DNA of 41,346 nucleotides from a virus (Duplodnaviria; Heunggongvirae; Uroviricota; Caudoviricetes): positions 1-41,346 of IMG/VR virus record IMGVR_UViG_2690316296_000007. One strand, given 5' to 3'. How positions within the stretch are numbered: the first letter of the stretch is position 1; each line of letters starts with the position of its first letter. The notes below the pieces were generated by a model that saw nothing but the letters and a program-made list of their open reading frames with translations, was not told the origin of the DNA and searched no databases. Of the stretch, positions 1 through 39,978 are shown piece by piece. Position numbers and translations under genes: made by a program.

Positions 1-301
1 CTATTGCTGGGTAAGATCATTACGACTTGCATAGCCAATGAAGATAAATGTGACGACAAACGGCGCAGCAGTCTTCTTTTCCTTCATACTTTCCCCACCC
101 AGCATGCATACCTTCTACCATAACTGTAGTGAATGTCTGTTATGAGCGAGAAGCGGAAGTTCGTAATTATTATCAGTACAGTGCACCACTAATTATTTTC
201 ACACTGAAAGCATTAAGGTGTGAAGAGGGTTTTTATGCTTGATTTAATTATAAAATTGCAGGAAAGTGACCTTGTATCAGCTGATGATGAGTGAGTAAAA
301 A

Positions 302-1681
302 ATGTGGGAAGATAAGTATATTTGTCATAAATGCGTGAACGATAAATATGTCATGCAGCATATAATAAAAACTGGAAATAATTTTCAGATTTGCTCTTAC
401 TGCAAAAGGAAGCGTAAAAACATCCACCTCAAATATATTCTCAAGATGATGAATGAGGTTTTTGAGTACTACTATGATATATATGAGGATATCTATGATT
501 CCGGGCGCGGTGATAGCGCGCAGGATGTCATCTACGGAGAACTGGGCGTCGAATGGGACGTAGCTGAAGATATTTATGAATTTCTTTGTGATGAATATAA
601 TCCGCATAACGATTATGACTACATCCGGTATAATGACGGGTTTCTTTATCGGCACATAAATCACTATAGCGGAGAGCTTGCGCATACCTGGAGTAAAGCC
701 ACTGACTCCCTTATGAAAGAAACACGATATTTTAACCGTGAAGTTAATGATTTCCTAGATTCACTTTTCAGTGATATCGATAAACTAAAAAACAGAGACA
801 GTAATTCACCGATAAAAACTCTGACTGATGAGGTTCATCTTTTTCGTGCAAGGGTTTTTGAGGACCAAGAGGAAGTAAAGCAAGCCTTGGAGCATCCCGA
901 GAAAAATTTTGGACCTCCCCCAACAACTTTGGCTCGCTCGGGCCGTATGAACGCACAGGGGATTTCAGTATTTTACGGTGCAACCTCAGTGAATTTGGCA
1001 ATTGCTGAAGTAAGGCCGCCCGTCGGCAGTATTGTAGTAACGGCCTGTTTTGTACCGTTACGCGAGCTAAAAGTGCTGGACATTTCTGCCCTTGACTCGA
1101 TTAGTTTCGGCTCAGGTAGTAAATTTGATCCTCAGACTCGCAAAACCAGTGAGCGCGCGATTTTTTTCAGTACGCTTTCCCGTAAGTTGACGCTTCCTAC
1201 TTTTGGAAAAAGGCAGGACAGTGATTACCTCATCACCCAAGTGGTTGCCGATTACCTAGGTGACCGAAATAAATTTAAGCTTGATGGTGTCAGCTTTAAA
1301 TCTACCCAGGTAGATGCCAACGGTGAGGATGCTGAGACAGGATATAATGTCGTTCTGTTTAATAAGTCTTCCGGCGTCAGGCATGCCGCAGATAAATCTC
1401 GCCGATATAATGTTGAGATGTATGAACACATCGAAGATGACCAGTATGCTTTTGTTCCGGAAATTCAGTTGATAGTTGAGGAACAAATAAAACCGAGACA
1501 TATGGGTTCATTTTCATCCTCGCATGACAAAAATGATGCACTACTGTTGAAAACCAACAGTATGACTTATCATAAAATTACTGGTGTAAAATACCAAACA
1601 AGTGAGACGGAGATTCATCAGGGAGATAGCGTTCGAAAACAAGAGCCACCTCAGAAATTCGATGACCTGATTGACTTCTGA
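302..1681 (+). CDS. RES-domain protein with N-terminal zinc-ribbon-like extension (candidate NAD-targeting toxin/defence effector)
   Basis: 459-aa ORF; N-terminus has two CxxC pairs (CHKC ... CSYC); central segment HLFRARVF ... SGRMNAQGISVFYGATSVNLAIAEV fits the RES-domain pattern (conserved Arg, then GRxN...Y...A..E); AT-rich relative to the structural genes. Confidence 0.6.
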   Translation: MWEDKYICHKCVNDKYVMQHIIKTGNNFQICSYCKRKRKNIHLKYILKMMNEVFEYYYDIYEDIYDSGRGDSAQDVIYGELGVEWDVAEDIYEFLCDEYNPHNDYDYIRYNDGFLYRHINHYSGELAHTWSKATDSLMKETRYFNREVNDFLDSLFSDIDKLKNRDSNSPIKTLTDEVHLFRARVFEDQEEVKQALEHPEKNFGPPPTTLARSGRMNAQGISVFYGATSVNLAIAEVRPPVGSIVVTACFVPLRELKVLDISALDSISFGSGSKFDPQTRKTSERAIFFSTLSRKLTLPTFGKRQDSDYLITQVVADYLGDRNKFKLDGVSFKSTQVDANGEDAETGYNVVLFNKSSGVRHAADKSRRYNVEMYEHIEDDQYAFVPEIQLIVEEQIKPRHMGSFSSSHDKNDALLLKTNSMTYHKITGVKYQTSETEIHQGDSVRKQEPPQKFDDLIDF

Positions 1682-1905
1682 TCATCCGTTATATCAGGGT
1701 AAACTATTATTAAAGATGATGTGAGGGCAGTTAAGGAAGGAATTCACCCGGTATCGCGTTACTGGCGTCCCTTGATACCAAGCGGGCAGATTGCTGAACA
1801 GACACGTCTGTTTGAGCGAGGAGTTGGCTTTGTAGAATGCTTCAAGAGATAAAAACGCCTTATTTACGCAACTTGCTGCGAAAGGACCATGGCTTTGCTA
1901 GCTTC

Positions 1906-1945
1906 GGCACAGAGCGGACTGTCAGATTAGGCTTTACTCTGTGCC
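1906..1945. repeat. Hairpin motif copy 1 (GGCACAGAGCGGAC core; 9-bp inverted repeat ggcacagag/ctctgtgcc)
   Basis: Shares a 14-nt core with the copy at 3104..3127; sits in a GC-rich island between AT-rich cassettes. Confidence 0.4.
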
Positions 1946-2335
1946 ATAGATATGTAAGCTCACACCAGAGCTCATACAACTTCTTGCGGCATTTCCGGCC
2001 ATTCAGGATTTGCAGGATCCACACGACTGACCAGAACGCTGTAGCGTTCCCATGCCTCCAGTCGACTGCGCTCCTCATCTGTTGCCATATTCAGCCTGAC
2101 AGCGCGCTCCAGCGGCAAAATCACGGATTCAGCATCTGCTAGAAGTCTGGCTTTCCGATAGCCCATTTAAAGGATAACTTCCAAAGCAGTGGCAACTAAC
2201 ACTATTTATATCATGAGCAAGGCTTTTCCAGTTTTCATGCTCTCAGGGCATAAAAGTATCAACTATTTCTAATCCATGCCGATACTAACAAAAATACCAC
2301 CATAAAATATAATTAAGAAAATGTTAAGGATCTAC

Positions 2336-3010
2336 ATGAAAAGCTATTTAAAAGGTGTTTGGGAATACTTCGCGAGTCACATGTTGTTTATGTATCTCGG
2401 CTCAGTCTCTTTTGCATGGATTGATATCTGGTTTTTTAAAAAAATTGAACCATCAACAATTACTGCAACAGTTTCAACAATAACACTTGGACTAGCGATT
2501 TATGCATTAACAAGGGTAAATGAATGGATTAAAAACAAAAAATCAGAAAAGGCTTTCGAGAGAACTACATTGTTCATCGACAGCATGTTTCGATCAAAGG
2601 ACTTAAATCATCAATGTTATCAATCACTTATTTCTATACAGCCAAGAATAAAAAGTGAGAACCCCATACTCTACAAGCATCTCACTACAAGTGGGAGGGA
2701 GTTACTTTCTGAGTCAAAAGATTTACGATTCGAATTAGTTGCAATTCGGGATAGTTTTGGTTTGTGGAAAATCAAACCTAATCATTCAGACCTTCTAAAT
2801 AATCTCATCACCACCTACACTGCTCTTGTTGCACAATTTAATATCATTTATATTTTAATTGATGAATTAGAGCGTGGTGAAAGGGTAGTTTCTGAGTCAT
2901 CATGGGATAGTTATATCGGAATGATGGCAAGCGCTTATTCAAATTACCATGATCAGTTCGAAATATTCAAAGATTGTAGCTACAATGAACTTTTTAAAAT
3001 CATTAAATAA
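2336..3010 (+). CDS. Hypothetical membrane protein (two N-terminal TM helices)
   Basis: ORF 2321..3010; the ATG at 2336 is preceded by AAGGA; hydrophobic stretches SHMLFMYLGSVSFAWIDIWFF and TATVSTITLGLAIYAL; AT-rich. Confidence 0.45.
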   Translation: MKSYLKGVWEYFASHMLFMYLGSVSFAWIDIWFFKKIEPSTITATVSTITLGLAIYALTRVNEWIKNKKSEKAFERTTLFIDSMFRSKDLNHQCYQSLISIQPRIKSENPILYKHLTTSGRELLSESKDLRFELVAIRDSFGLWKIKPNHSDLLNNLITTYTALVAQFNIIYILIDELERGERVVSESSWDSYIGMMASAYSNYHDQFEIFKDCSYNELFKIIK

Positions 3011-3103
3011 TAATTGTCGTGTATTGCGATCATATCACCAGCGATACCCATGACATTATGGTGACCTGCTCTCCATTGATTAACACATTGTGATGTCAGT
3101 AAC

Positions 3104-3127
3104 GTCCGCTCCTGGCACAGAGCGGAC
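3104..3127. repeat. Hairpin motif copy 2 (gtccgctc-ctggcaca-gagcggac), between convergent cargo genes
   Basis: Perfect 8-bp stem; tccgctcctggcaca is shared with the copy at 4646..4668; may act as a bidirectional terminator. Confidence 0.45.
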
Positions 3128-3203
3128 GATATCACTGAGCTGAAGGTCCGCTGAGAGCGAGGAGCAGAAGTTATATTAAAAATTAATTAGCACGTTGATT
3201 TAA

Positions 3204-4502
3204 TCACCATGAAGGATAATTAGGTTTTTTTCCTCTTAAAAGAGATACTTTGTCAATTATCTCAACAGAAGCAGTTCTATAATCCTCCTGCTGAAGTAGG
3301 TGAACTGCATAATCTCTCAATTCTTGCAAAGTGGAAAAGCCGTTACTTTCGATGAGTATTATAATTATCTTAATATACTTAAAGATTTGTTCAGAGGATT
3401 CGTTCGCGTTGACGTTAAGTTCGTAAAAATCTTTACCATCATGAACAAGCTTGTTTCTTACGTCAGTATATAACTCGTCATAAACTTCTAGGTTTTTCTT
3501 AAATTTGATTAGTGAGTTATTACATGTAAGTGCTGCAATGTAGGTCCTTTGCTTCCATCCTTTCCAATTTGGGTCAATATTAGCAAGACCATCAAGTGCA
3601 AAGACTAGGTTTAGAAATTGTGATTCCGCGCCAATTGAATAAAAAGATTGCCTACATGCCCTAACTACGGAGCTAACTAATTTTGAAAGTTCATTTTCAA
3701 CGACTCCATCGTAGATAGAAGATAAATATTGCAACCCAGGGTAATACAAGCTGTCAACCTGAGGGCCTAGCCAATTATTACTCACAGCAAGGGGTCTTGA
3801 TATTCCACTTATCTTAATTGGTTTAAGATGAGTCCTCTCACGAGGAATGATTTCTACATCATAAAATCCGTCAGAGCGTTGACCTGCAGGATTAGGGGTA
3901 TATTCCATACGTGTAAATGAGCTGTGAGAAAATCTGACTAAATCAAGCGCATATTCAGCTATAGATAAACACATGTTTATAACATGGTTGTTATGATCAA
4001 TGCTTGAATTAAGTTTTAATAAATCAATATATGGTAGGTCACAGTTAAACTGTATATACGAACCATCTTGCTCTGATAATCGCTTATGTGACTCTTCATC
4101 AAATTGTCTTCCGCAATAAAAAATATACTTTCCGATCTCGATGGTTTCCTGAATGAAAATCTTCTCAATCGGCACAATAACTATGCACTCCATATTTTTG
4201 TTTTTACCCTCTAATTCAGCTAATTCTAGGTTAGAGCTTCTTGATTTAGCTAACTCTATTTCTACCCACTCAAAGCATATTGAGAAGTCTTCTAGAATTT
4301 CGATACTGCTTTTTTGATAACTATCCTTGGTATATTTAAATGTAATGCCATCTCCTTCAGGATAGGCACTGGCCCAATATCCCATATCTCTTAACTTTTT
4401 TAGAGATGTTGAGATATCGTCGACTTTATTAATAAAATCCTCTTTTCGCCATAAAACATTGCCAGTGTAGTTTTCGTACGGTGGTATTAAACGAGCTTTC
4501 AT
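3204..4502 (-). CDS. Hypothetical 432-aa cargo protein with Rx4H (HEPN-like) motif; candidate abortive-infection effector
   Basis: Long AT-rich ORF with AAGGAAG 6 nt upstream of the ATG; C-terminal region contains RNKLVHDG (R-x4-H); flanked by the repeated hairpin motif. Confidence 0.5.
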   Translation of the reverse strand: MKARLIPPYENYTGNVLWRKEDFINKVDDISTSLKKLRDMGYWASAYPEGDGITFKYTKDSYQKSSIEILEDFSICFEWVEIELAKSRSSNLELAELEGKNKNMECIVIVPIEKIFIQETIEIGKYIFYCGRQFDEESHKRLSEQDGSYIQFNCDLPYIDLLKLNSSIDHNNHVINMCLSIAEYALDLVRFSHSSFTRMEYTPNPAGQRSDGFYDVEIIPRERTHLKPIKISGISRPLAVSNNWLGPQVDSLYYPGLQYLSSIYDGVVENELSKLVSSVVRACRQSFYSIGAESQFLNLVFALDGLANIDPNWKGWKQRTYIAALTCNNSLIKFKKNLEVYDELYTDVRNKLVHDGKDFYELNVNANESSEQIFKYIKIIIILIESNGFSTLQELRDYAVHLLQQEDYRTASVEIIDKVSLLRGKKPNYPSW

Positions 4503-4645
4503 ATAACTTCCTTATTATCCAAGAGGATGTGACTGAAATTTTTATCAGACTTATCTACAATAATATAAATTGACATGAAAAATCTACTCAACAATTAACC
4601 GTTATGATTTGCTTGCGACGACTAAAACATGCCGATGGGTCGCAT

Positions 4646-4834: not shown

Positions 4835-5389
4835 TCATTTATCTCCGACCGGAAACATCTTATACAGTGTCGATACACCAACATCATAGATGATCGCTAC
4901 CTTCTGGCGAGGAATTCCTGCTGCAATTAATCGTCCGGCCTGCTCCCATTGTTCTGGTGTAAGTTTGGGGCGACGTCCACCAATTCGTCCCTGTGCGCGA
5001 GCAGCTTCCAGTCCAGCTTTTGTTCGTTCAACAATCAGTTCACGCTCCATTTCAGCCAGGGCACCCATCACATGAAAGAAAAAGCGCCCCATTGGGGTAC
5101 TGGTATCAATTGAATCCGTCAGACTACGAAAGTTGATGCCTCGTTCGCGCAACTCCTCCACCAGCACGACAAGATGCCGCATACTGCGCCCCAGTCGGTC
5201 CAGTTTCCAGACCACCAGCGTGTCACCTGCCGATAATGTCCTGAGCAGCTTTTTCAGTCCTGGTCTGTCGGACTTTGTACCGCTTATCTTGTCTTCAAAA
5301 ATCAGCTCACATCCTGCACAGTTCAGCGCATTACGTTGTAGATCGGTATTCTGGTCATTTGTTGATACACGTACATAGCCAATAAGCAT
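4835..5389 (-). CDS. pin: Serine-recombinase DNA invertase (Pin/Gin/Hin/Cin family)
   Basis: N-terminus MLIGYVRVSTNDQNTDLQ with the catalytic Ser in the YVRVS context, resolvase-like core, C-terminal HTH; start moved to the ATG at 5389 (track ORF extends to 5425). Confidence 0.9.
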   Translation of the reverse strand: MLIGYVRVSTNDQNTDLQRNALNCAGCELIFEDKISGTKSDRPGLKKLLRTLSAGDTLVVWKLDRLGRSMRHLVVLVEELRERGINFRSLTDSIDTSTPMGRFFFHVMGALAEMERELIVERTKAGLEAARAQGRIGGRRPKLTPEQWEQAGRLIAAGIPRQKVAIIYDVGVSTLYKMFPVGDK

Positions 5390-5415
5390 GTTAAATCCCC
5401 CTGGTAAAAGCAGGA

Positions 5416-5952
5416 ATGATGCCATTTGCTTGTTATTTCTTCATTTTCATAAACGTTGGTTTGGGAGAAGGTTCGGCATTACCCGTTGGTGTGCCTGTTC
5501 CGTGGCCTTCAGCCACTCCGCCAACAGGCTGGCTGAAATGCAATGGTGCGCCTTTTTCTGCCGAAGAGTATCCGGAACTGGCAAAAGTTTATCCGACAAA
5601 TAAATTGCCAGATTTACGCGGTGAGTTTATTCGTGGCTGGGATGATGAACGTGGTGTGGATAGTGGGCGAACTCTGCTTTCAGCGCAAGGAGATGCTATT
5701 CGAAACATTACTGGCGGTTTTGGTCAGTTGCGCGTAAACAGCGAAATAAATGCAATTGTTGATGTTCAAAGTGTGAGTGGTGCTTTTTACGGAGGTACCT
5801 CAGTCCGGAATAACATCAACGTATCTATGACATACGCTAATGACCGAAAAATCCGACAAGATGTTCACTTCTCGGCGGCAAATGTTGTTCCAACAGCAAA
5901 TGAAAATCGTCCACGTAACATCGCCTTTAATTATATTGTGAGGGCCGCATGA
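5416..5952 (+). CDS. Alternative tail-fibre C-terminal cassette (Sv'-like), silent in the present orientation
   Basis: Encodes NVGLGEGSALPVGVPVPWPSATPPTGWLKCNGAPFSAEEYPELAKVYP, typical of the variable fibre tip in invertible segments; the crossover site lies just inside its 5' end; no independent expression expected. Confidence 0.7.
   Translation: MMPFACYFFIFINVGLGEGSALPVGVPVPWPSATPPTGWLKCNGAPFSAEEYPELAKVYPTNKLPDLRGEFIRGWDDERGVDSGRTLLSAQGDAIRNITGGFGQLRVNSEINAIVDVQSVSGAFYGGTSVRNNINVSMTYANDRKIRQDVHFSAANVVPTANENRPRNIAFNYIVRAA
5449..5474. repeat. Invertase crossover site 1 (gix/hix-like)
   Basis: ataaacgttggtttgggagaaggttc; its reverse complement matches the site at 7301..7325 in a ~20-nt core (ttctcccaaacca[a/c]cgttt). 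Confidence 0.7.
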
Positions 5953-6554
5953 TGAATAAAGCTGTATTAAATAGTGAACTCATTGCCATAAAAACGGGAG
6001 ACATTATCATTTATAATTATGATGGTGAAACGCGTGAATATATTTCTACATCAACTGAATATCTCGCTGTCGGCGTCGGTATCCCGGCATGTTCTTGTTT
6101 GGATGCACCAGGTACACATAAAGCTGGTTATGCAATCTGTCGCTCTGTAGATTTAAATTCATGGGAATATGTGCCAGATCATCGCGGTGAAATCGTCTAT
6201 AGCACCGAAACAGGAGAATCGAAAGAAATCACAGCTCCGGGTGATTATCCTGAAAATACAACCACTATCGCCCCGTTAACGCCATACGATGAATGGAATG
6301 GTGAGAAATGGGTGACAGATACCGAGGCACAGCACGGCGCAGCAGTAGATGCAGCAGAAGCACAGCGCCAGTCGCTGATTGATACTGCAATGGCCTCCAT
6401 CAGTCTGATTCAACTGAAATTACAGGCCGGACGGAAGCTGACGCAGGCAGAAACAACCCGCCTTAACGCTGTGCTGGATTACATTGACGCGGTGACGGCA
6501 ACAGATACCAGCACAGCGCCGGATGTCATCTGGCCTGAACTGCCGGAGGCGTAG
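5949..6554 (+). CDS. Tail fibre assembly protein (partner of the silent cassette)
   Basis: 201-aa ORF directly after the alternative fibre tip; conserved Tfa-type C-terminus (DYIDAVTATDTSTAPDVIWPELPEA). Confidence 0.8.
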   Translation: MMNKAVLNSELIAIKTGDIIIYNYDGETREYISTSTEYLAVGVGIPACSCLDAPGTHKAGYAICRSVDLNSWEYVPDHRGEIVYSTETGESKEITAPGDYPENTTTIAPLTPYDEWNGEKWVTDTEAQHGAAVDAAEAQRQSLIDTAMASISLIQLKLQAGRKLTQAETTRLNAVLDYIDAVTATDTSTAPDVIWPELPEA

Positions 6555-6963
6555 GCCATTCAATATCTGGCGCACCGGAAGTATCGATCAGCTCCAGTGC
6601 GTCCAGATAATCCAGCCACAAATTATATTGCGCCAGTTCATCACCTTTCAGACGACCAATAGCGGCTTTACCGGGCCATTGCTTACTGTTCATGTATTCG
6701 TTGGCCTGATTAAGCAATAATTGCCTTTCTGATTCTGCCTGCTGAATAAGTTCTTCATGTGATGGTGGAGGTATTAGTGCCCATGTGGGTAATCCATTTT
6801 TTCCTGCAACACGAATTTTGTCATCTGGAGGCGTATTGATTGCAAATTCATTATAAACATCATCACTGACAGCCAGAGCATCATCTGGCCATGAATTTGC
6901 ATTAATGTAATCATCCTTAAGTGCAGGATTCACAAAAATGTTTAAAGATGGACTATAAAACAT
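6526..6963 (-). CDS. Tail fibre assembly protein (partner of the expressed fibre tip)
   Basis: 145-aa ORF directly after the fibre gene; Tfa-type C-terminus (DYLDALELIDTSGAPDIEWPTPP). Confidence 0.8.
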   Translation of the reverse strand: MFYSPSLNIFVNPALKDDYINANSWPDDALAVSDDVYNEFAINTPPDDKIRVAGKNGLPTWALIPPPSHEELIQQAESERQLLLNQANEYMNSKQWPGKAAIGRLKGDELAQYNLWLDYLDALELIDTSGAPDIEWPTPPAVQAR

Positions 6964-6964
6964 A

Positions 6965-7603
6965 TTACACCCCTATAGCGATATAACGACCTAATACAGC
7001 GTTTGCAGCAGTCGCTATGCTTGAAAAACCGCGGAACTGATTTGATGTAATTGCAGAAGCCGACAGGATTCCTGCGCCTGAAGGTGTATGCCCCACATGA
7101 CTAACTATCATTCCATAACATGCTGACGGAAAGGCAAAAGGAAAATCGTTAAGATATCCGGCATCTTCACCACCAGACCCACCAAATCTCGCCTGCCCCC
7201 ACTGAATAATCAGTGTTCTCCGGGAACCTGAAATAATTAACGGGATCGTTACATACCCATTCAGGCCAATGACACCAGATGCAGTGCCAGCCAGAGATAA
7301 TTCTCCCAAACCAAGGTTTTCGAGAGCCGTTTTCACCGTGCCATCCGATTTGATATCGCCAAACGGATTTTTGCGGCTTAACAGCAGCGCACGAAGCGCG
7401 GTAAGCAACTGGTCGTGCCGCCCCTTCTCCAGGCTGGCACCGGATGCCTCCACCACGCTGCAGAGCTCTTCCTGCAACATGTCAAAGTAGTCATCATCCA
7501 GATCGGTGGCAGGCGTGCCGGTCTGGGGGTTACCACGGGTAAAACCGTTCTTACCCGCGCCGAACTTATCCTTCTGCGCGGTTTTCGTGTCTATACGATG
7601 CAT
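6965..7603 (-). CDS. Side tail fibre protein (constant N-terminal part fused to the currently expressed variable C-terminus)
   Basis: 212 aa; GGAGT Shine-Dalgarno; the crossover site encodes LENLGLGE at about residue 95, the fusion point; size and layout like e14 StfP. Confidence 0.8.
   Translation of the reverse strand: MHRIDTKTAQKDKFGAGKNGFTRGNPQTGTPATDLDDDYFDMLQEELCSVVEASGASLEKGRHDQLLTALRALLLSRKNPFGDIKSDGTVKTALENLGLGELSLAGTASGVIGLNGYVTIPLIISGSRRTLIIQWGQARFGGSGGEDAGYLNDFPFAFPSACYGMIVSHVGHTPSGAGILSASAITSNQFRGFSSIATAANAVLGRYIAIGV
7301..7325. repeat. Invertase crossover site 2, inside the tail fibre gene
   Basis: attctcccaaaccaaggttttcgag; inverted relative to site 1. Confidence 0.7.
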
Positions 7604-7606
7604 GGA

Positions 7607-8191
7607 TTACTCCGGATATTTAAAAATTACGTAGGTATGCGACGGGCAGAGTTTGTTAAGCACGCACTCGACAACGGTGTCCCCCCAGATACGCAGTGCG
7701 GAATCACAGGGATCGCCACATGTCATCCAGGTGGTGTTGGTGGCGGCTGGCATGTTGACCTGCCAGTAATACCGCCATTCCGGCGCATTCACAGCGTCAG
7801 TACAGGCCGATGAGCAGGTGAACGTGCTTTTGTCGTATCGCGTGATGGCGGCATCTGGTCTGCCCAGGGCAGCAAGCTGTGCAAGATAAAAATCCTCGTT
7901 GATGCCACCCGCCAGGTTAACCTTCGCATCCAGCCGTTGCTGACGCTGGCGAAGGGTCTGTGTCCCTGCGGGATTACATTCATCCGGCAGGCCGCACAGA
8001 CGCTCCCAGCGATTTATCAGTTCGGTGGTGGTGCGCGGATCCAGCTCCCGCATCAGGGCATCCGCACGCTGATGAACACGAGTTAATGACGGTGCCGCAC
8101 CGGCAATCGCCGGATCGCTGGCTGACCACGCCGGACCGGGCGGCAGCAGCGCCGACAACAGACGGATGTAATCATCGTTTGTCACGTCCAT
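7607..8191 (-). CDS. Tail/baseplate protein (YmfQ / Mu gp48-like)
   Basis: 194-aa ORF between the baseplate J-like gene and the fibre gene; family call by position and recalled sequence character. Confidence 0.7.
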
Positions 8192-9240
8192 GAAATCGTC
8201 CCCAGAACTGCCAGCTCATTTTTTGCAATGGAGATATTGTCCGCTGGTGCAAGCAACTGATGGCTGTATTCCCCGTTCGCACCGGAAATCGCTTCACTGA
8301 TACGCGACACCTTCAGTTCTCCCTGCGGATAACCATCACGCAGCAGGAACGAACGCAACTCGGCGGTGATGGCAGCCCGTATTTCGGGTGTGTCCGGCGT
8401 CACGCGGATATGAAAATCCACAGTATGCGCCACCGGCCTGAACACATACAAATCAGAGCCTGCCACCGGGGCCAGTGGCCCGATATGTTGTCTTGCCGCC
8501 GTTTCCGTTGATTCTTCCGGAATGGGATTAATCAGGTCACTGCCGGCAATCATCACACCGACAGTCCCCGTTCCCATCCAGTGACGGTATGTCCATGCGC
8601 GGGTAATGCCGGGCACTTCTTTAGCCCAGACGACATAGTCCCCGTCAGCCCCGCCCTGCGGCGTCCAGTAATACCGCTCAATGACGCGGGCGCGCCACGT
8701 TTCCAGATCTTCAGTATCGAATCCGCCAGTCAGGGTATCTGCCACACCGGAAGACGGCAGACCATTCACCGGCGTGACCAGGATTAATGCCGTACCGTCG
8801 TCAGCGTTACCGACCGCGCCTGCAGTTGAGCAGGCGATCGGCACGCGCAGGACTCCACCTGAGCTGGTTGCATCAGAAGTTGCCGTGTACTGAACCAGGT
8901 CATCGCGCTGAATAACACTCCCGGCGGTCACCTTCAGGCCATCGCTGACACCTTCCCAGCGCATATACCCGCTGGCAGACGTGGCCCCCTTGCGCGGACA
9001 CCGTTTCATCGCAGCATGTCGCGCCAGCCAGGACTCATCGCACAGGTCAGGCAGCATGTTCATTGCCAGATAATCGATGTAACCGTAAACCGTATGCAGC
9101 GCCGCCGCATACACCTTTGCCCGCACGTCTTCATCCATGCGCCGGAGCGTGTCGCTGACGTCCAGCCTGGCGAATAAATCGTTACGGAGCATACTGATAT
9201 TTTCTGCCAGCGTCGGGCGCTGAAATTCACTGTTCGCCAT
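8182..9240 (-). CDS. Baseplate J-like protein (Mu gp47-like)
   Basis: 352-aa ORF in the conserved baseplate gene order. Confidence 0.75.
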
Positions 9241-9655
9241 GCGTTATCGCACTCCACAGATCATCAAAAGAAATCATTACCGGTCCGTCACGACGCCAGA
9301 GAGTGATACTGTTACCCAGTTCATTAATCCCGGTGCGGCGGATATCCAGATCAATACGGGACACCACGCCGTCATCAGTCATCCATTGCAGGCATTCGCG
9401 GATATATCCCCTTACCGTCTGCACCAGCTGATTGGTCAGTTTGCTGCGCTGAAGCAGCCACAGTCGGGAGCCGTAACGGTCATTCTGTACCGCAGGCCAG
9501 GTATCCCCCCACCATCCCATCGGGACGTCGGCATTGTCATCAGGCTCCGCCCGCCGCCAGGTGAACAGGGAAATCACCACGGCGCGGGTCAGCGGATCCA
9601 GCGGTGCGCTGGCGCAGGTGCGTTTACCGTTCACCGTCAGCCACAGTTCCATCAT
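9227..9655 (-). CDS. Baseplate protein (Mu gp46-like)
   Basis: 142-aa ORF overlapping its neighbours; position in Mu-like order. Confidence 0.65.
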   Translation of the reverse strand: MMELWLTVNGKRTCASAPLDPLTRAVVISLFTWRRAEPDDNADVPMGWWGDTWPAVQNDRYGSRLWLLQRSKLTNQLVQTVRGYIRECLQWMTDDGVVSRIDLDIRRTGINELGNSITLWRRDGPVMISFDDLWSAITHGEQ

Positions 9656-10200
9656 GCCTCCATCGCTTTATCAGGTTTGTCGGTGTTACTACCCTGACCG
9701 TTCTCTCTGTGACGATGCCCGTTATAGGCAAGCCGCATCGCTGACATGGTGGTGCCGCCGGAGTCGCACAGGTCTTTCACCTGTCCGGTCACTTCCAGAT
9801 CCATTTCAAAACGTGCTTCAGGTGCATTGCGAAACGTGATCGTTTTCCCTGCACCGTCCACCACGATCCCCTCCCGGGTCAGCGTCACGGACTGCCCCTG
9901 ATCGTCATAGACAGCCACCTCCCCCGTCTGCAGCCCTTTCAGGCGGTAGCGCCGGTCCGACACCGTAACAACCACCGCATGAGAACGGTCGCCATCCGGA
10001 AACAACACCACCGCTTCCGCACCGCTGTTTGCCCTTGCGGTAAAACCGTAGGGTTCAAGATGTTCAACCCCGGCTTTGGGTTCACCGGCAATCAGGGACA
10101 CATCCACGGTCTGACATTTCGTGGCGGCACTGATGCTTTTCACCACTGCCCGCCCAATCAGGCCGAGAAGTTGTCGCTGCATGGCTTCAATCGTCCTCAT
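9652..10200 (-). CDS. Baseplate assembly/spike protein (Mu gp45 / gpV-like)
   Basis: 182-aa ORF; position in Mu-like order. Confidence 0.7.
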   Translation of the reverse strand: MRTIEAMQRQLLGLIGRAVVKSISAATKCQTVDVSLIAGEPKAGVEHLEPYGFTARANSGAEAVVLFPDGDRSHAVVVTVSDRRYRLKGLQTGEVAVYDDQGQSVTLTREGIVVDGAGKTITFRNAPEARFEMDLEVTGQVKDLCDSGGTTMSAMRLAYNGHRHRENGQGSNTDKPDKAMEA

Positions 10201-11279
10201 CAGAACGGGTCCTCCTGTACTCTGGCTTTTTTCTTTTTCCGCGCGCCGGGGGCTTCGGGTTCAGGCAGATAAGCATCAGGTGGGCCGACACGGATTTCCG
10301 TCAGGGTGCCATTCTGGTCCTGAGTAAACGTGACTTCCGAGACAAGCAGTTCGGTATTGTCGAAACCACAGACCGGATCGAAGACAATCACCCGCTGGTT
10401 GGGCTGCCACAGCGTACCGTTACCCTGTCGCCAGCCCTGCACCACATAGGTGGTTTCATCCGTCCGCGCCGCCCGTTGTCGGGCTTCAAAGTCAGCACGC
10501 GCAATACAGCCTGCCCCCGTAGCCTGCCCTGTCTGCCTGATATACATCGGACGGTAACGGGCAATAAATGCATCCTCTGTGCGGGCCCGCAGCGCGGTGG
10601 TGGTGGCCTCACCGAAATCATCGTCGTTTCCGGCACGCTGCCCCGCCACCTGGTAAACTGAAAACCGCTCCCGGATACTCTTCTCCGTATCACAGGAAAG
10701 GATGTTTTCCCCAAGTACCAGCGCGGTATGTGCCCGCGTTGAGCCAATACCACCAATCACCAGCCTGCCGTGCGGGTCGTCATAAGCCAGCGCCTGCTGC
10801 TGACCGAGTATTTTGTTGATCACCTCGATCACCGTTTCACCGTGATCAGGCTGGACATCCGGAATAACACCCGACGGCGCATCGCTGTTCACCACCTCAA
10901 TGCCGAAAGGCGCAGCAAGCGCCTGCGCAATCTGTACCAGCGATCGTCCGTTAAACTGTGTCGGTTCGGCTGCACAGTCAATCAGGTCAGCAGTCAGACT
11001 ACGTCCGGCAATACCGGTGCTGACCGAACGGGCATCGTAACGAACGGGGGTCGCCTCCACCCAGCCGGTGATCACCAGCTCATCACCAATCAGCACTTCC
11101 ACTTTTGAACCATTTTTAATGCGCGGCTGAAGCGTGGTGATACCCTCATCTCCCGGCCACTGGCGGGTGATCTCCACGCTGAAATCCCGCGCCAGCCGTT
11201 CAATACCGGCACCGATGCGCACCGATGTCCAGCCATTCCACTCTCGGCCATTTACCCGTAGCGTGACGTTATCGTTCAT
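10200..11279 (-). CDS. Baseplate hub / tail protein (Mu P / gpD-like)
   Basis: 359-aa ORF following the DNA circulation gene. Confidence 0.7.
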   Translation of the reverse strand: MNDNVTLRVNGREWNGWTSVRIGAGIERLARDFSVEITRQWPGDEGITTLQPRIKNGSKVEVLIGDELVITGWVEATPVRYDARSVSTGIAGRSLTADLIDCAAEPTQFNGRSLVQIAQALAAPFGIEVVNSDAPSGVIPDVQPDHGETVIEVINKILGQQQALAYDDPHGRLVIGGIGSTRAHTALVLGENILSCDTEKSIRERFSVYQVAGQRAGNDDDFGEATTTALRARTEDAFIARYRPMYIRQTGQATGAGCIARADFEARQRAARTDETTYVVQGWRQGNGTLWQPNQRVIVFDPVCGFDNTELLVSEVTFTQDQNGTLTEIRVGPPDAYLPEPEAPGARKKKKARVQEDPF

Positions 11280-12604
11280 TGCACTGGCACCTTCAGAGGG
11301 ATCACCGGCACAAAGCCGGGATGCGTAATGGCATTACGCCGGATAATGTCCGCGTCACGCGCCGCGTTATCAAACCAGGTCGCCGCCAGCACCAGCGCGG
11401 GTAAAACCTCATCCGGCGTGCGCTGAATGATCCGTGCAGACTGTTCAAGGCGCGTGTTGATATCCGCATTCAGATCTGCTTTCACCCGGCGCAGCGCCAG
11501 AAACAGCGCATCACTGGTTGTACGGGACAACTCCTTATCAGTTGCCGTATTCAGTGTGTCGCGAATGTCAGTCAGTTCTTCCCACGTCGGCAGGTCAACC
11601 GTGCTTTTCACCGCCGGAGCATTGTTCAGTGCCGGATGCGTGACGGAAGGCCAGCCAGTGCTCTGCGCGGGTGTTGTTGCCTGCCCCACTGCGGCATTCT
11701 GCATCACCGCGGAAGTTGTTGGCGCAGGCAATCGGGTGACGGCATACGCCGCTTCGCTGATTGCGGTCGTACGAAGGATGCTGGCAACCACGTTACGCTG
11801 CTGCGTCGCCGTGGCGGTGGTTTTACTGTCCGTTTTCCAGACGCCGCGCGGTTGCAGATCGCTGCCGAGGCTGACACCGGAAAGCGTTTTGATCATGGTG
11901 ACCAGGTCGCTGGCGTTACCATAAAGGCGTTTCCCGGTACGCCACATTTTCTGCACCTGCTCAACGAAATTTTTGCCTGACGATGGCGGCGGCAGAAGTA
12001 CCGAGATATCCCCCTGCAACAGCCTGGCGGCATCCGATACGGCAGAATCCACCACTTTCATCGCATCAGAAACATACCCCAGCATTGTGCCGGCATTACC
12101 GACGACGTCGTTCTGCACAAAATCCGCCACGCCATCGATACTGAAACCACTGAAGCTGTCACTGATGCAGTCATCCAGTGCAGAACAGGATGACATCAGC
12201 GTCTGCGCCGTCGCCGCACCTGAAGTGGGATAAGAGAGTTCTCCCGCTTCGACAAACTTCAGGTCAAAGCGGACAATACGCCCTTCACTCTTCGATGTGC
12301 TGACCCGAACTTCCCCGTCAACACAGACTTTCAGCTCACCGTAAGTCGGATGGACAAGCGTGCCGGGACCGGGTTTATTCAGCGCGTCAATCAGGCGATC
12401 GCGCTGGTCAAAGCAGTCATCTCCCACCACATAAGCCGTGATGGACGGGCGGAAAGTGACTTTTCCCAGATCTTCGGTATAGGGTTTGTCGCGGTTCGGA
12501 TATTCGTGTGTTTCCACACGACGGCCGGTTCCCGCACTTTCTTCTTCAACCTTAAACGGCACACCTCGAAATGACGCATCCTGAAGCCTGTCTTTCCACG
12601 TCAT
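11276..12604 (-). CDS. DNA circulation protein (Mu N-like)
   Basis: ORF 11276..12610; the ATG at 12604 is preceded by GGAGTG; lies between tape measure and baseplate hub as in Mu-like tails. Confidence 0.65.
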   Translation of the reverse strand: MTWKDRLQDASFRGVPFKVEEESAGTGRRVETHEYPNRDKPYTEDLGKVTFRPSITAYVVGDDCFDQRDRLIDALNKPGPGTLVHPTYGELKVCVDGEVRVSTSKSEGRIVRFDLKFVEAGELSYPTSGAATAQTLMSSCSALDDCISDSFSGFSIDGVADFVQNDVVGNAGTMLGYVSDAMKVVDSAVSDAARLLQGDISVLLPPPSSGKNFVEQVQKMWRTGKRLYGNASDLVTMIKTLSGVSLGSDLQPRGVWKTDSKTTATATQQRNVVASILRTTAISEAAYAVTRLPAPTTSAVMQNAAVGQATTPAQSTGWPSVTHPALNNAPAVKSTVDLPTWEELTDIRDTLNTATDKELSRTTSDALFLALRRVKADLNADINTRLEQSARIIQRTPDEVLPALVLAATWFDNAARDADIIRRNAITHPGFVPVIPLKVPVQ

Positions 12605-12614
12605 ATACACTCCG

Positions 12615-12645
12615 AAAATAAAAAAGCCACCTATTAGAAGGTGGC
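12615..12645 (-). terminator. Rho-independent terminator after the tail-operon moron
   Basis: 7-bp stem GCCACCT/AGGTGGC with a 6-nt loop, followed on the minus strand by TTTTTTATTTT. Confidence 0.55.
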
Positions 12646-12665
12646 CTTGTAATGAATTTTATTAA

Positions 12666-13196
12666 TTAGCGAGTCAGAAACAACGAATCTTTATACTTTT
12701 GCTGTTGTTCATTTAAATACTTAGCTGTTTCATCGCTGGCAAATGGAAATATTACCGTATTTTTAGGCATGGTAATTTCTTTTTTGTCCAGCGTCAGAGT
12801 AAACATAGGAACATACTGAGCAGAGTAACGCACCGCAGAAACGAGCTCTAGTTTAGACTCTTCAATAACACTTAAATTATCCAGGCTAACTTTCTCTTCA
12901 TCTTTTTTCTTTGACGCATTTAAAGTTTTTATTACTTTATTTAATTTCTCCTGAAAATCCTCCTTAAAGTTTTCAGGATTGCCGTCGACAACAAGAATCT
13001 GTTCGCCCTGATTATCTGGAAAAATAATCTTTGCACTTATCAATTTATTTTCTTTATAAACATCACCAAGTTTTATGGCTCCTCCAGATAACTGAATAAT
13101 ATGTTCATCTTTAAAGGAGATGTTGCCAGAGATTATGAGAGATGAAAAAATAGCCGCTGCTCCAAGAATTACACTTGCTGTGATATAGCCTTTCAT
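12666..13196 (-). CDS. Moron: predicted secreted/periplasmic protein, unknown function
   Basis: AT-rich 176-aa ORF between tape measure and DNA circulation genes; signal-peptide-like N-terminus MKGYITASVILGAAAIFSSLIISG; lysine-rich; own terminator. Confidence 0.55.
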   Translation of the reverse strand: MKGYITASVILGAAAIFSSLIISGNISFKDEHIIQLSGGAIKLGDVYKENKLISAKIIFPDNQGEQILVVDGNPENFKEDFQEKLNKVIKTLNASKKKDEEKVSLDNLSVIEESKLELVSAVRYSAQYVPMFTLTLDKKEITMPKNTVIFPFASDETAKYLNEQQQKYKDSLFLTR

Positions 13197-28052: not shown

Positions 28053-28204
28053 TTGTAGTTATCTCTCACCTCGCTGATACAGCAGGTGCAAATTGAGGGA
28101 ACATCATGTACCGCAAATCAGAAGCGGAAACGTCAAAGAAGCCGAACCAATGGATAACTGCGGAATAGGCCAGAACCAACGAATCCCCAGCCCCAGAAAC
28201 GACA

Positions 28205-28225
28205 AAACCCGCTCGACGCGGGTTT
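28205..28225 (-). terminator. Terminator-like hairpin upstream of the holin (possible tR')
   Basis: AAACCCGC-TCGAC-GCGGGTTT, followed on the minus strand by a U-rich stretch. Confidence 0.3.
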
Positions 28226-28270
28226 AAGCTGTGTGGCGAAGTAACCACTCTTAACACGATACAATACTTT

Positions 28271-28299
28271 TTGCGTACGCGTTAGCATTTGATTAGAAT
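28271..28299 (+). promoter_or_regulatory. Sigma70-type promoter for the Q-S cargo cassette
   Basis: TTGCGT - 17 bp - TAGAAT, then AGGTGA Shine-Dalgarno before the ATG at 28332. Confidence 0.45.
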
Positions 28300-28331
28300 C
28301 CAATCATCAGAAAGCTAGGTGAAGGTTCAAA

Positions 28332-29153
28332 ATGAATTTTTCTTACACAAAACAGGATGGTCATACCAAACGCTGCCTTGTCAGAGCATTCAATGTTAAT
28401 ACAGCAACAACAGATATACTCTTCGACCAAATTTCAAATTCTGGTAAATTTATTGTTGACACTGTTTTTAAAATAAACAATGAACAACATTTAATACTGA
28501 AAGAGTTTTCTACAAATAATAAAAGTCATTACTTACACTTTGCATTATATAATCCAAAAGAACAAGTATCGATCACACCAAAAATAAAAACCGCAAGCGA
28601 TCTTCTTGATGTTGAAAACCTTGACAATTTGCACGCTTTTTTATATGTAAAAGAAAATAAAATTGCATCTCTAATGCAAATATCAACAAATTGGTGTGAA
28701 ATTAAAATCGCTAAAATATTCGAGCAATTTGGTATAAAAATAACACCATCAGCAATTTTGCAAAAAAATGTCATTCAACGAATTAAAGATGATAAACTTA
28801 GGGCTTTGCATCTTAATATTAGCGTTGATGCTTCTAATTTTGTGAAAACGCCCAGCTTTATAGACTCTATTTTTCAGAAAGAACCCAAACTTAAAGCTAG
28901 AGGTATTTCAGGACATTTAACTCTTGATGCAAAAGGAAATGCTGAACTAGCACAATCTATTGAAACCAACCCTAGTGGTTGGATAAATGATTTGGATTCT
29001 GATTTTTATATAGAAACAAAAAAAGGAGAGAAAATAACTAGTGACGACATTAAGTTAACAAAAGTTTATTATACAGTCCCTTATGGTTCAAAATCTATTA
29101 ATTCAAAATATGCGAAAGAAATTCTAGAGGACTTTGCTCAAAAAGAGCTATAA
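28332..29153 (+). CDS. Cargo protein A, 273 aa, soluble, unknown function
   Basis: AT-rich ORF with strong Shine-Dalgarno, antisense to the late operon; no recognisable motif. Confidence 0.55.
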   Translation: MNFSYTKQDGHTKRCLVRAFNVNTATTDILFDQISNSGKFIVDTVFKINNEQHLILKEFSTNNKSHYLHFALYNPKEQVSITPKIKTASDLLDVENLDNLHAFLYVKENKIASLMQISTNWCEIKIAKIFEQFGIKITPSAILQKNVIQRIKDDKLRALHLNISVDASNFVKTPSFIDSIFQKEPKLKARGISGHLTLDAKGNAELAQSIETNPSGWINDLDSDFYIETKKGEKITSDDIKLTKVYYTVPYGSKSINSKYAKEILEDFAQKEL

Positions 29154-29176
29154 TATACTAAAAAAAGGAGGCTAAC

Positions 29177-29662
29177 ATGTTAAAATCACTCAATTACTCA
29201 GGTATATCATTAACTTTGTTAAACATTTTAGCCTCAGTATTATTTTCAATTTTCCTCACACATACTTTAACGAACAATACTGACGCATTAAATTTGGTCG
29301 CCAATGTATTTTCTATCCTATCTGGTTTTCTTTTGTTGGTTATCACAATGTCTGGTGAAAACTCTACTCTGATGAACAACTTAAGCAAATTAGACGCTGC
29401 AAATCAAGAAATACGTTTCCTCATGCGTTTTAACAAATATTATGCTTTATTCTTGTTATATATTTTAACATTAGCTTTAATTTTTGTTTTTTATTTAATA
29501 TCCAAGGATAAAGAAAACACATCTCAATACTTCATTCTGTTTAAGAAGTCAATTGGTTACATTATCTCTTTTTTAACTTGTTTTTCTTTTATACAATCAA
29601 CATTCATCCCACTAAAAATAAAAGAATTATTTAAAGAGAAAAGACAACTTAATAAAAAATAG
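29177..29662 (+). CDS. Cargo protein B, 161 aa, four predicted TM helices
   Basis: AAGGAGG Shine-Dalgarno; four hydrophobic segments; ends at the terminator. Confidence 0.55.
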   Translation: MLKSLNYSGISLTLLNILASVLFSIFLTHTLTNNTDALNLVANVFSILSGFLLLVITMSGENSTLMNNLSKLDAANQEIRFLMRFNKYYALFLLYILTLALIFVFYLISKDKENTSQYFILFKKSIGYIISFLTCFSFIQSTFIPLKIKELFKEKRQLNKK

Positions 29663-29684
29663 GCCGCATAGCGGCCATTTTTTT
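29662..29684. terminator. Bidirectional rho-independent terminator
   Basis: GGCCGC-ATA-GCGGCC hairpin with T7 run on the plus strand and T6 run on the minus strand; overlaps the stops of cargo protein B and Q. Confidence 0.6.
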
Positions 29685-30046
29685 CATGTTAACAAAATAC
29701 TTAAACAGCCATCGATGAATCCCATTGCAGTCTGTAATTCTTTTCGGATGGTACCATCAGAACACTTCTGCTTCTTTGCGATAGTTCTTAATGAGATGCC
29801 GATAATAAAATGAGCAATAACCAACTCATACTCTTCGGGCTTATATTTACGCAATCGCGCAACACAGCTGTCAATCATGATTCCTTCATCATCATCGCAT
29901 TGTTGGCGTGTTTTCTTTCCATGAGGTAGTAAACCTTTAAACCCTGCAGCAACAGGCTGCCAGTCCACACCACTGTTATCTGCTGCAGCCCATGCTCCCC
30001 AGCGGTCCAAAACTTCATACATATCACGCATCAACTTTCTCCACAA
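29684..30046 (-). CDS. Late-gene antiterminator Q (QuuD/QuuQ-like)
   Basis: VLDRWGAWAA ... DWQPVAAGFKGLL ... CDDDEGIMIDSCVARL ... CSDGTIRKELQTAMGFIDG resembles E. coli prophage Q proteins as recalled. Confidence 0.8.
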   Translation of the reverse strand: MWRKLMRDMYEVLDRWGAWAAADNSGVDWQPVAAGFKGLLPHGKKTRQQCDDDEGIMIDSCVARLRKYKPEEYELVIAHFIIGISLRTIAKKQKCSDGTIRKELQTAMGFIDGCLSILLT

Positions 30047-35990: not shown

Positions 35991-36146
35991 AAACAACGAA
36001 CAGGCAGGACGCCCACGAAGTAGCCGCCTGGGGCATATGAAGTCCAGGATGATTCGTTAGCAACAAAAAAGCGCCCTACAGGACGCTTAGCTCTTTAACA
36101 ATCTGGTCCCCATCAACAAGTAACTGATAACTTGAGGAGATGTGAA

Positions 36147-36353
36147 ATGCACAAAACAGAACCCAAAATCGTCGCGCCTGGCTACACAGATGAGGAAATT
36201 TATGAGTGGATGACAAAGAAGCTGGCAGCTATAAACCAGCTTCGTGAAGTGCTGTCTTATCGACAGGAAACAATAGACTCCTTAAAAAAACTGGATCAGG
36301 AAATCACGGTTTTATCACAGGATGTTACTTTAGATATTGTGCAGACAAATTAG
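36147..36353 (+). CDS. Small hypothetical protein, first gene after pL
   Basis: 68 aa from the ATG at 36147 with GAGGAG Shine-Dalgarno; helical, no Arg-rich N-like motif. Confidence 0.45.
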   Translation: MHKTEPKIVAPGYTDEEIYEWMTKKLAAINQLREVLSYRQETIDSLKKLDQEITVLSQDVTLDIVQTN

Positions 36354-36759
36354 GATCCCATTCATTTTCGTCAAAATCATCAAAGTGATGAATTTGTGAT
36401 CTCCAGTCTCGATAATCTAAAAATTTCTGGGCGGTTACGCTTATTTTATCAAGTGTGAGTTCATCCTGAATTGAAAGAAGAAGTTCATCAAATTTCATCT
36501 CATTAATCTGTTTTGGCATCCAGTGATGCTTCATCAGAATAAGGTGAACCAGAGCCTTTTTCCCATTCAACTGATTATAGGGAGTGCCGAATTTCTTCCG
36601 GTGCTCATGTAAGACAAGGTCCAAAAGAGTAAGTAATGTTGCCCTTGATTCAACTTTGCTTATTTCGACTGATGACACTACCCCACTGATTTCAATGCCC
36701 CGATACTTTCCAACATTTTCACAGTGGGATTTGTACAGCGTATAGATATTACCGGACAT
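36325..36759 (-). CDS. Hypothetical 144-aa protein antisense to the pL operon (candidate exclusion/accessory gene)
   Basis: AT-rich ORF convergent with 36147..36353 (29-nt overlap); direct repeats GTTGTTGGGGA(T/A)AAC just upstream at 36775..36823. Confidence 0.5.
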   Translation of the reverse strand: MSGNIYTLYKSHCENVGKYRGIEISGVVSSVEISKVESRATLLTLLDLVLHEHRKKFGTPYNQLNGKKALVHLILMKHHWMPKQINEMKFDELLLSIQDELTLDKISVTAQKFLDYRDWRSQIHHFDDFDENEWDPNLSAQYLK

Positions 36760-36779
36760 TTCTTTTCCTTTTGCGTTGT

Positions 36780-37210
36780 TGGGGATAACCAGATTAACCG
36801 AATCCTTGTTGTTGGGGAATAACTAGGTCCACCTCGCCTGATGTGGCTAAAAGCAGGCACATAACAGCTAAGTATTTTCAACCAGAGAGAATCCTTAGCG
36901 TTGTGGTGAATGCGGCTCAGCGCACGCGGGTTAAGGTTGAGGCTGACAGTCGACCTTCTGTGGATACCCACCCGCCTGGTGTGCAACCTTCGCTAGGCAC
37001 CGGGAGGCACCCGGCACCACAACTTTATGCTGTGTGTAGTCCTGGCGGTACCAGTTTGTACCCTTGCTTCCGGCTGGTACCGTCCTTTTTACAAAACAGA
37101 GAAGAGCATCACCGGACGACGGGCTCATAACCCAATCCATCCGGGCGGCTGCCACCGCAGGTGTTCTTCTCTGTTTTGTGGAGAAACTAACCGCCCCTAC
37201 GGGGGCATTT
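36780..37210. other. GC-rich structured non-coding island (candidate ncRNA or regulatory RNA element)
   Basis: No convincing ORF; 15-bp perfect stem ACAAAACAGAGAAGA/TCTTCTCTGTTTTGT (37091..37179), nested CGGTACCAG/CTGGTACCG repeat (37047..37082), GCCCC-TAC-GGGGC hairpin then ATTTAT (37193..37209). Confidence 0.3.
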
Positions 37211-39888: not shown

Positions 39889-39902
39889 CTTATTGATTTT
39901 AA

Positions 39903-39978
39903 TGGTGCCGATAATAGGAGTCGAACCTACGACCTTCGCATTACGAATGCGCTGCTCTACCAACTGAGCTATATCGGC
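39903..39978 (-). tRNA. thrW: tRNA-Thr (anticodon CGU)
   Basis: 76-nt cloverleaf GCCGATATAGCTCAGTTGGTAGAGCAGCGCATTCGTAATGCGAAGGTCGTAGGTTCGACTCCTATTATCGGCACCA; anticodon loop TT-CGT-AA; 3' CCA end faces the integrase. Confidence 0.9.

Follow-up and report, generated by a model that had tools for sequence, protein, structure and literature searches.

At one end of an Escherichia coli prophage lies a gene for a 459-aa protein that joins a zinc ribbon to a RES domain, and the question it raises is what such a protein does there. The stretch analysed (the window) is the whole of the 41,346-nucleotide virus record IMGVR_UViG_2690316296_000007, and the gene occupies its positions 302..1681 (+). An earlier reading of the sequence, hereafter the original prediction, took the product to be a single-protein NAD-depletion defence effector. 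Here we report that the gene is very probably an allele of aRES, the antiphage RES-domain protein described by Osterman, …, Sorek (bioRxiv 2026-01-28, doi 10.64898/2026.01.28.702374), working as published: infection-triggered phosphorolysis of NAD+ by the RES domain, leading to abortive infection or growth arrest.

The window gene and the published aRES

The gene is an intact, ATG-initiated open reading frame (ORF) whose product is listed in RefSeq as 'RES family NAD+ phosphorylase' (WP_021563595.1). E. coli 19SZHZ886Rt, the closest complete genome (99.8% identity across 19..4600), gives this gene the same annotation, and the start codon is that of the published aRES expression construct (primer 660). 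A stand-alone zinc-ribbon and RES protein of 459 aa had been predicted, and both the cysteines and the RES match were confirmed: a profile search returned PF08808 at E=3.2e-14 (53.7 bits, cutoff 23.2; aa 205-361), and the RES core motif singled out earlier, SGRMNAQGISVFYGATSVNLAIAEV, was located at aa 213-237 (938..1012).

According to the preprint (doi 10.64898/2026.01.28.702374), aRES is a stand-alone gene without operonic partners that encodes 300-600 aa with a RES Pfam domain and PF18870, and about 4% of genomes carry one. The authors accepted PF18870 at an hhsearch probability above 80% from a multiple sequence alignment; the RES identifier is printed as 'PF00808' in their Methods, PF08808 being the RES family. 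The window gene stands alone, has the length, the RES domain and the active-site residues of aRES, and its PF18870 domain is recognised when judged by the Pfam scores of the protein and its homologues rather than by the authors' hhsearch. Moreover, its counterpart from E. coli UC5 is on their final filtered aRES list. We rebuilt the full UC5 protein from the 400-aa prefix printed in Table S4 and the printed end of the integration construct; both proteins are 459 aa long and align without gaps, with 449 of 459 residues identical (97.8%). Over the first 400 aa, the identity of the window protein to two further tested proteins is 75% (Enterobacter) and 45% (Klebsiella).

The experimental evidence for defence, growth arrest, NAD+ loss, production of ADP-ribose-1''-phosphate (ADPR-1''-P) and dependence on six residues was obtained with this 97.8%-identical UC5 protein (doi 10.64898/2026.01.28.702374). 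Placed alone in MG1655, UC5 aRES protects against diverse phages and causes growth arrest. Infection of such cells with T7 leads to a drop in NAD+, the increase in ADPR-1''-P is restricted to infected aRES cells, and NAD+ fed to a lysate of infected cells yields ADPR-1''-P as the main product. The mutated residues were R182, R184, R215, Y225, E236 and S334, and active-site point mutations abolish defence. Phages are rescued from aRES by NARP2, by NARP1 together with a Macro-domain phosphatase, or by the small inhibitor aRad1; NARP1 by itself fails. Because the product is phosphorylated, NARP1, the common phage pathway for rebuilding NAD+, cannot use it. The proposal of a single-protein NAD-depletion effector is thus supported by a near-identical protein that does exactly this, with active-site dependence. 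As to the chemistry, depletion stands and simple hydrolysis does not, since the UC5 route is phosphorolysis to ADPR-1''-P.

In the window protein, the RES domain, a catalytic domain of the ADP-ribosyltransferase (ART) superfamily, lies at 812..1384 (+; aa ~171-361). The six residues occupy the same positions as in UC5 aRES: R182 (845-847), R184 (851-853), R215 (944-946), Y225 (974-976), E236 (1007-1009) and S334 (1301-1303), all on the plus strand. We aligned 49 full-length homologues with identities down to 30%; a RES match was found in all 49, and the six residues are invariant or at least 90% conserved. An AlphaFold2 model made from this alignment had a mean predicted local distance difference test score (pLDDT) of 83.3 and a predicted template modelling score (pTM) of 0.71. 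Fold comparison of the model returned MbcT (11.0), NatT (9.2), ParT (8.6), VPA0770 (8.1) and P. putida Res (7.7), followed by ADP-ribosyltransferases of the diphtheria-toxin type, with Foldseek in weak agreement on the RES-toxin fold. A search of the PDB with an aRES sequence profile gave nothing significant and recovered no solved RES structure. Because the RES toxins were recovered by fold comparison only, the domain is divergent in sequence.

In the proposed mechanism, the aRES protein would be kept inactive in uninfected cells; on infection, its RES domain would convert NAD+ to nicotinamide and ADPR-1''-P, and the collapse of NAD+ would stop growth of the infected cell and block phage replication. 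The prophage presumably carries the gene as a moron that guards the lysogen against other phages.

Protein architecture and alternative readings

The RES domain is flanked by additions of ~170 aa on the N-terminal side and ~95 aa on the C-terminal side. The first contains the zinc-ribbon cysteines C8, C11, C31 and C34 (CHKC...CSYC, CxxC-19-CxxC; 323..403, +). Among the 49 homologues, C31 and C34 are invariant, and conservation of C8 and C11 is 90% or higher. The model has pLDDT values of 83-94 across aa 1-40, and the four cysteines are predicted to bind metal. There follows the HEPN/RES N-terminal domain 1 (NTD1, PF18870; 386..742, +; aa 29-147), so that the double-CxxC extension seen in the original prediction is a named domain, HEPN_RES_NTD1, with a zinc ribbon before it. 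The window sequence alone matches PF18870 at E=7.8e-4 (20.2 bits, 122 of 131 profile positions covered), as do 36 of the 49 homologues (best 4.6e-11). The C-terminal tail (1397..1678, +; aa 366-459) is beta-rich, with modelled strands at 369-378, 381-390 and 414-425, and has no family assignment. Identity to the window protein in close, mid and far homologues is 84, 54 and 46% over the RES core (aa 166-365), 68, 36 and 21% over the NTD1 core (aa 39-120) and 57, 31 and 20% over the tail, conservation being highest in the RES core and lowest in the other two.

An alternative to a working aRES is that the window allele has decayed or shifted in function, being inactive or altered in specificity through its substitutions or its location at a degraded prophage end. 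Ten residues differ between the window and UC5 proteins (E3K, F28V, Q29R, I60M, Y78C, L115V, H198Q, T208S, T346I and I457M, window to UC5), six of them within the N-terminal 115 aa, and the genes differ by 10 non-synonymous and 7 synonymous codon changes. A pseudogene fragment, from a truncated tail-fibre-assembly gene, also adjoins the window gene. Against this, the frame is intact and full length, the ten substitutions all avoid the positions that are invariant or reach 90% conservation among the 49 aligned homologues, the remainder of the prophage seems complete, integrase to tail, and eight complete E. coli genomes of human, poultry, cattle and seawater origin keep the allele at 99.6-100% identity. 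A rough dN/dS, assuming ~3 non-synonymous sites per synonymous site, is below 1, on counts too small for a claim about selection. We consider decay or a shift improbable.

A second alternative is that the protein belongs, as the toxin, to a RES toxin-antitoxin module, conventional or cryptic, whose antitoxin would be a small unannotated ORF, an RNA or a product encoded elsewhere; it would then serve prophage addiction or persistence and not defence. Xre-RES pairs (MbcTA, NatRT, ParST) are the best-known setting of RES domains, the modelled fold of the domain matches the toxins of these pairs, and in a lambdoid prophage (see below) aRES adjoins hokD, a type I toxin gene. The RES toxin fold is, however, the only hallmark of an Xre-RES system found here: at 459 aa the protein is not a small single-domain toxin (about 150-250 aa), and there is no adjacent co-transcribed Xre/COG5642 antitoxin gene, either in the window or beside homologues. 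In the flanks (1..301 and 1682..1975), we listed all stop-to-stop segments of 20 aa or more and scanned the six longest with Pfam. No helix-turn-helix (HTH) or antitoxin-type ORF was detected in these flanks, and the only Pfam match among the six segments was an irrelevant one at E=0.022. The reported absence of a neighbouring HTH antitoxin gene therefore held, and it extended to related genomes, no Xre/COG5642 gene being present beside the homologues examined. We regard a cryptic toxin as very unlikely. Least probable of all is that the RES domain, whose model also resembles ParT, is a protein ADP-ribosyltransferase acting on a host or phage target, as ParT acts on Prs, instead of the bulk NAD+ phosphorylase that the UC5 experiments describe. 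All three alternatives are disfavoured relative to an aRES allele that works as published.

How such an enzyme might be held in check is suggested by the protein's architecture, by its pattern of conservation and by analogy with other abortive infection (Abi) proteins: the zinc ribbon and NTD1, possibly with the C-terminal tail, would keep the enzyme off and sense an infection cue. Going further, we tentatively propose that the zinc ribbon and a winged-helix-like NTD1 sense a phage nucleic acid or protein and, being covalently attached, do the work of an antitoxin by closing the RES site until the cue arrives. The two E. coli alleles, which lie in separate prophages and have six of their ten differences in this module, might then recognise different phage cues. 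If this doubtful idea is true, they are a ready natural pair for mapping the aRES trigger.

Several points weigh against a working, infection-sensing aRES in the window. The experiments cover the UC5 protein, and judging from the ten differences and their clustering the window allele could differ in phage range or activity. The score of the single sequence against PF18870 is under the Pfam curated cutoff (20.2 against 27.4 bits). PADLOC, NCBIfam and PHROG models gave no match to the protein, which probably reflects the age of those libraries or the lack of a fitting model in them. A consensus scan found no plus-strand promoter upstream and no terminator downstream of the gene above shuffle expectation, so expression from the prophage is assumed. 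Finally, the sensing role of the N-terminal module is one that we infer: in the main text of the preprint (doi 10.64898/2026.01.28.702374) the words 'trigger', 'zinc' and 'prophage' are absent, and the sole 'N-terminal' refers to a purification tag.

Prophage context and spread of the cassette

The window is almost wholly a ~40-kb prophage integrated at a tRNA-Thr gene (thrW, CGT; 39903..39978, -), identified by ARAGORN and BLAST. A 56-bp attachment (att) repeat at thrW (39893..39948) marks the integrase-side end, and aRES lies at the opposite end. In CP080080, the near-identical genome, the same 56-mer recurs 113-168 bp left of the point where the window starts (11814..11869 of locus L001), next to a truncated yagP-like LysR-type gene and paoD. 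We take thrW to be the chromosomal site of CP4-6 in K-12. The names and order of the prophage genes are those of e14: ymfK, ymfT, ymfL, ymfR, ymfQ, tail fibre and assembly genes, and pinE (4835..5425, -). In K-12, e14 ends in the order pinE-mcrA-attR. The gene had been placed past the invertase, where e14 has mcrA, and it does lie beyond pinE at the far end of the prophage, with two unrelated ORFs and a tail-fibre-assembly fragment between them; the analogy of position is correct because mcrA is the gene beyond pinE at the end of K-12 e14.

Outward from pinE come a 432-aa ORF, a 229-aa ORF, the C-terminal tail-fibre-assembly fragment and then aRES, the last gene before att. This cargo segment (143..4600) has a G+C content of 38.6%, against 50.9% elsewhere in the window; the aRES gene alone has 41.4%. 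The fragment (1972..2166, -; Caudo_TAP, E=5.5e-18) is annotated as a pseudogene in the near-identical genome, and its presence suggests that the cargo was inserted into, or recombined beside, remnants of the invertible tail-fibre segment. A hidden Markov model search of all six reading frames of the window for the Adpp phosphatase and the seven published aRad1 inhibitors detected no such counter-defence in the carrier prophage (best E=0.15).

aRES forms a 1.77-kb single-gene cassette (143..1907), around which no terminal repeats were found, and which is 97.4% identical to lambdoid prophage DNA, there between hokD and lit. The gene is rare: among 5,426 complete E. coli genomes, 12 have it, always on the chromosome. 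Eight of these carry the window allele (99.6-100% identical) and four a 98.8% allele; from the latter, PF9285 was the one translated, and its product equals the rebuilt UC5 protein at 459/459 residues. A lambdoid prophage of PF9285 has this UC5-type allele flanked by hokD on one side and a phage-exclusion gene of the Lit family on the other (9357..12924 of locus L002). The hokD-lit region is thus a second prophage spot for defence or cargo genes occupied by the same cassette.

Further afield, 772 full-length homologues were retrieved at E<=1e-3, and 782 plasmid records contain homologues. A tblastn search of 50,697 phage records (INPHARED) gave no aRES match, so that the gene was seen in prophages and plasmids and not in the free phages of that collection. 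In all six contexts, which are of the defence-island or mobile-element kind expected for aRES, the gene is monocistronic; its neighbours include lit, hokD, P2-like phage genes and genes for an FRG-domain protein or a PLD-family nuclease. The Aeromonas homologue is in a P2-like prophage beside ogr, portal and terminase genes, those of Klebsiella and Burkholderia are in genomic islands, and the Rahnella homologue (51% identity; 7443..10732 of locus L004) has a TrwC/TraI-type relaxase and an integrase nearby.

The Rahnella homologue is followed, 84 bp downstream, by a gene for a 486-aa FRG-domain protein and then by one for a 454-aa protein without a domain match. FRG is another NAD+-related conflict domain of the ART superfamily, and these genes might be linked to aRES, or the locus might be a defence island. 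At three unrelated loci, umuDC-like genes lie within a few kb of aRES homologues (4112..5808 of L008, 3645..5331 of L010 and 11096..12277 of L004): a Peptidase_S24 protein with an IMS polymerase in Aeromonas and Klebsiella, and an IMS polymerase alone in Rahnella. These neighbours are probably shared mobile-element cargo and not a functional link.

The neighbouring 432-aa hypothetical protein (3204..4502, -), encoded between pinE and aRES, had no match in Pfam, PADLOC or PHROG. Its family is conserved, gave 171 matches, in Enterobacteria, Pseudomonas, Vibrio, Shewanella and a cyanobacterium, and has an invariant R349-N350-x-L352-V353-H354, an RNxxxH motif of the HEPN type; several members are labelled 'Apea-like HEPN domain-containing protein' in UniRef. 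The gene is a candidate for a stand-alone HEPN RNase in defence. The 229-aa ORF (2321..3010, +) has a hydrophobic N-terminal region, judged by eye to contain possibly two membrane helices, and its product matched nothing in any family library scanned; other E. coli genomes have this ORF but not the 432-aa gene, which suggests that it is a separate item of cargo. The prophage of CP080080 is 97-99.9% identical to the window except at 5470..7301, 28079..29727 and 36058..36829, the first being the invertible tail-fibre region, part of which matches CP080080 inverted at 89%.

Comparison with known systems

The idea is already known, in its architecture since 2013 and in its defence function since January 2026. 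HEPN/RES-NTD1 was defined by Anantharaman, Makarova, Burroughs, Koonin and Aravind (2013, Biol Direct 8:15, PMC3710099, Table 2), who grouped such proteins with Abi-like proteins in which N-terminal domains are fused to toxin domains. As the architecture was catalogued there over a decade ago, it is not new. In that class of zinc ribbon, HEPN/RES-NTD1 and RES, the 2013 prediction for the RES domain was an RNase, and the domain has since been recognised as an NAD+ phosphorylase; NTD1 was described as mostly alpha-helical, whereas our model weakly suggests an alpha/beta, winged-helix-like core.

With UC5 aRES the window protein shares the zinc ribbon, PF18870 and RES architecture, the six required residues, the stand-alone arrangement and the 1.77-kb cassette in complete E. 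coli genomes; the two differ in carrier, which is the hokD-lit region of a lambdoid prophage for UC5-type aRES and the end of an e14-like prophage at thrW for the window allele. The window adds little that is new, since the biology of aRES is already published. It contributes a second natural allele of the aRES prototype, located on a small cargo island of low G+C content with an uncharacterised HEPN-like candidate as neighbour. It also shows a cassette that moves from one cargo site to another among E. coli prophages of unrelated types, the sites being the distal end of the e14 type (the mcrA site) and the lambdoid hokD-lit region. The remaining interest thus lies in the natural allele pair, in this movement from prophage to prophage, and in a trigger that could be approached with two alleles.

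The solved RES toxins MbcT (M. tuberculosis), NatT (P. aeruginosa), Res (P. putida) and ParT (Sphingobium) have chains of 144-250 aa and are neutralised by an adjacent Xre-family antitoxin; the window protein, in contrast, has 459 aa with N- and C-terminal additions of its own and no antitoxin gene. Closer in organisation are the SIR2 proteins DSR1 and DSR2, TIR/Thoeris and, as an analogue pairing an N-terminal domain with HEPN, ApeA, with which aRES would share a sensor fused to a toxic effector, activation upon infection and NAD+ collapse as the end result. From these defences aRES differs in its catalytic fold and in its product, ADPR-1''-P, which evades phage NARP1. Chemically, aRES adds a third way of depleting NAD+ in anti-phage immunity, with a product that defeats the commonest phage pathway for NAD+ repair.
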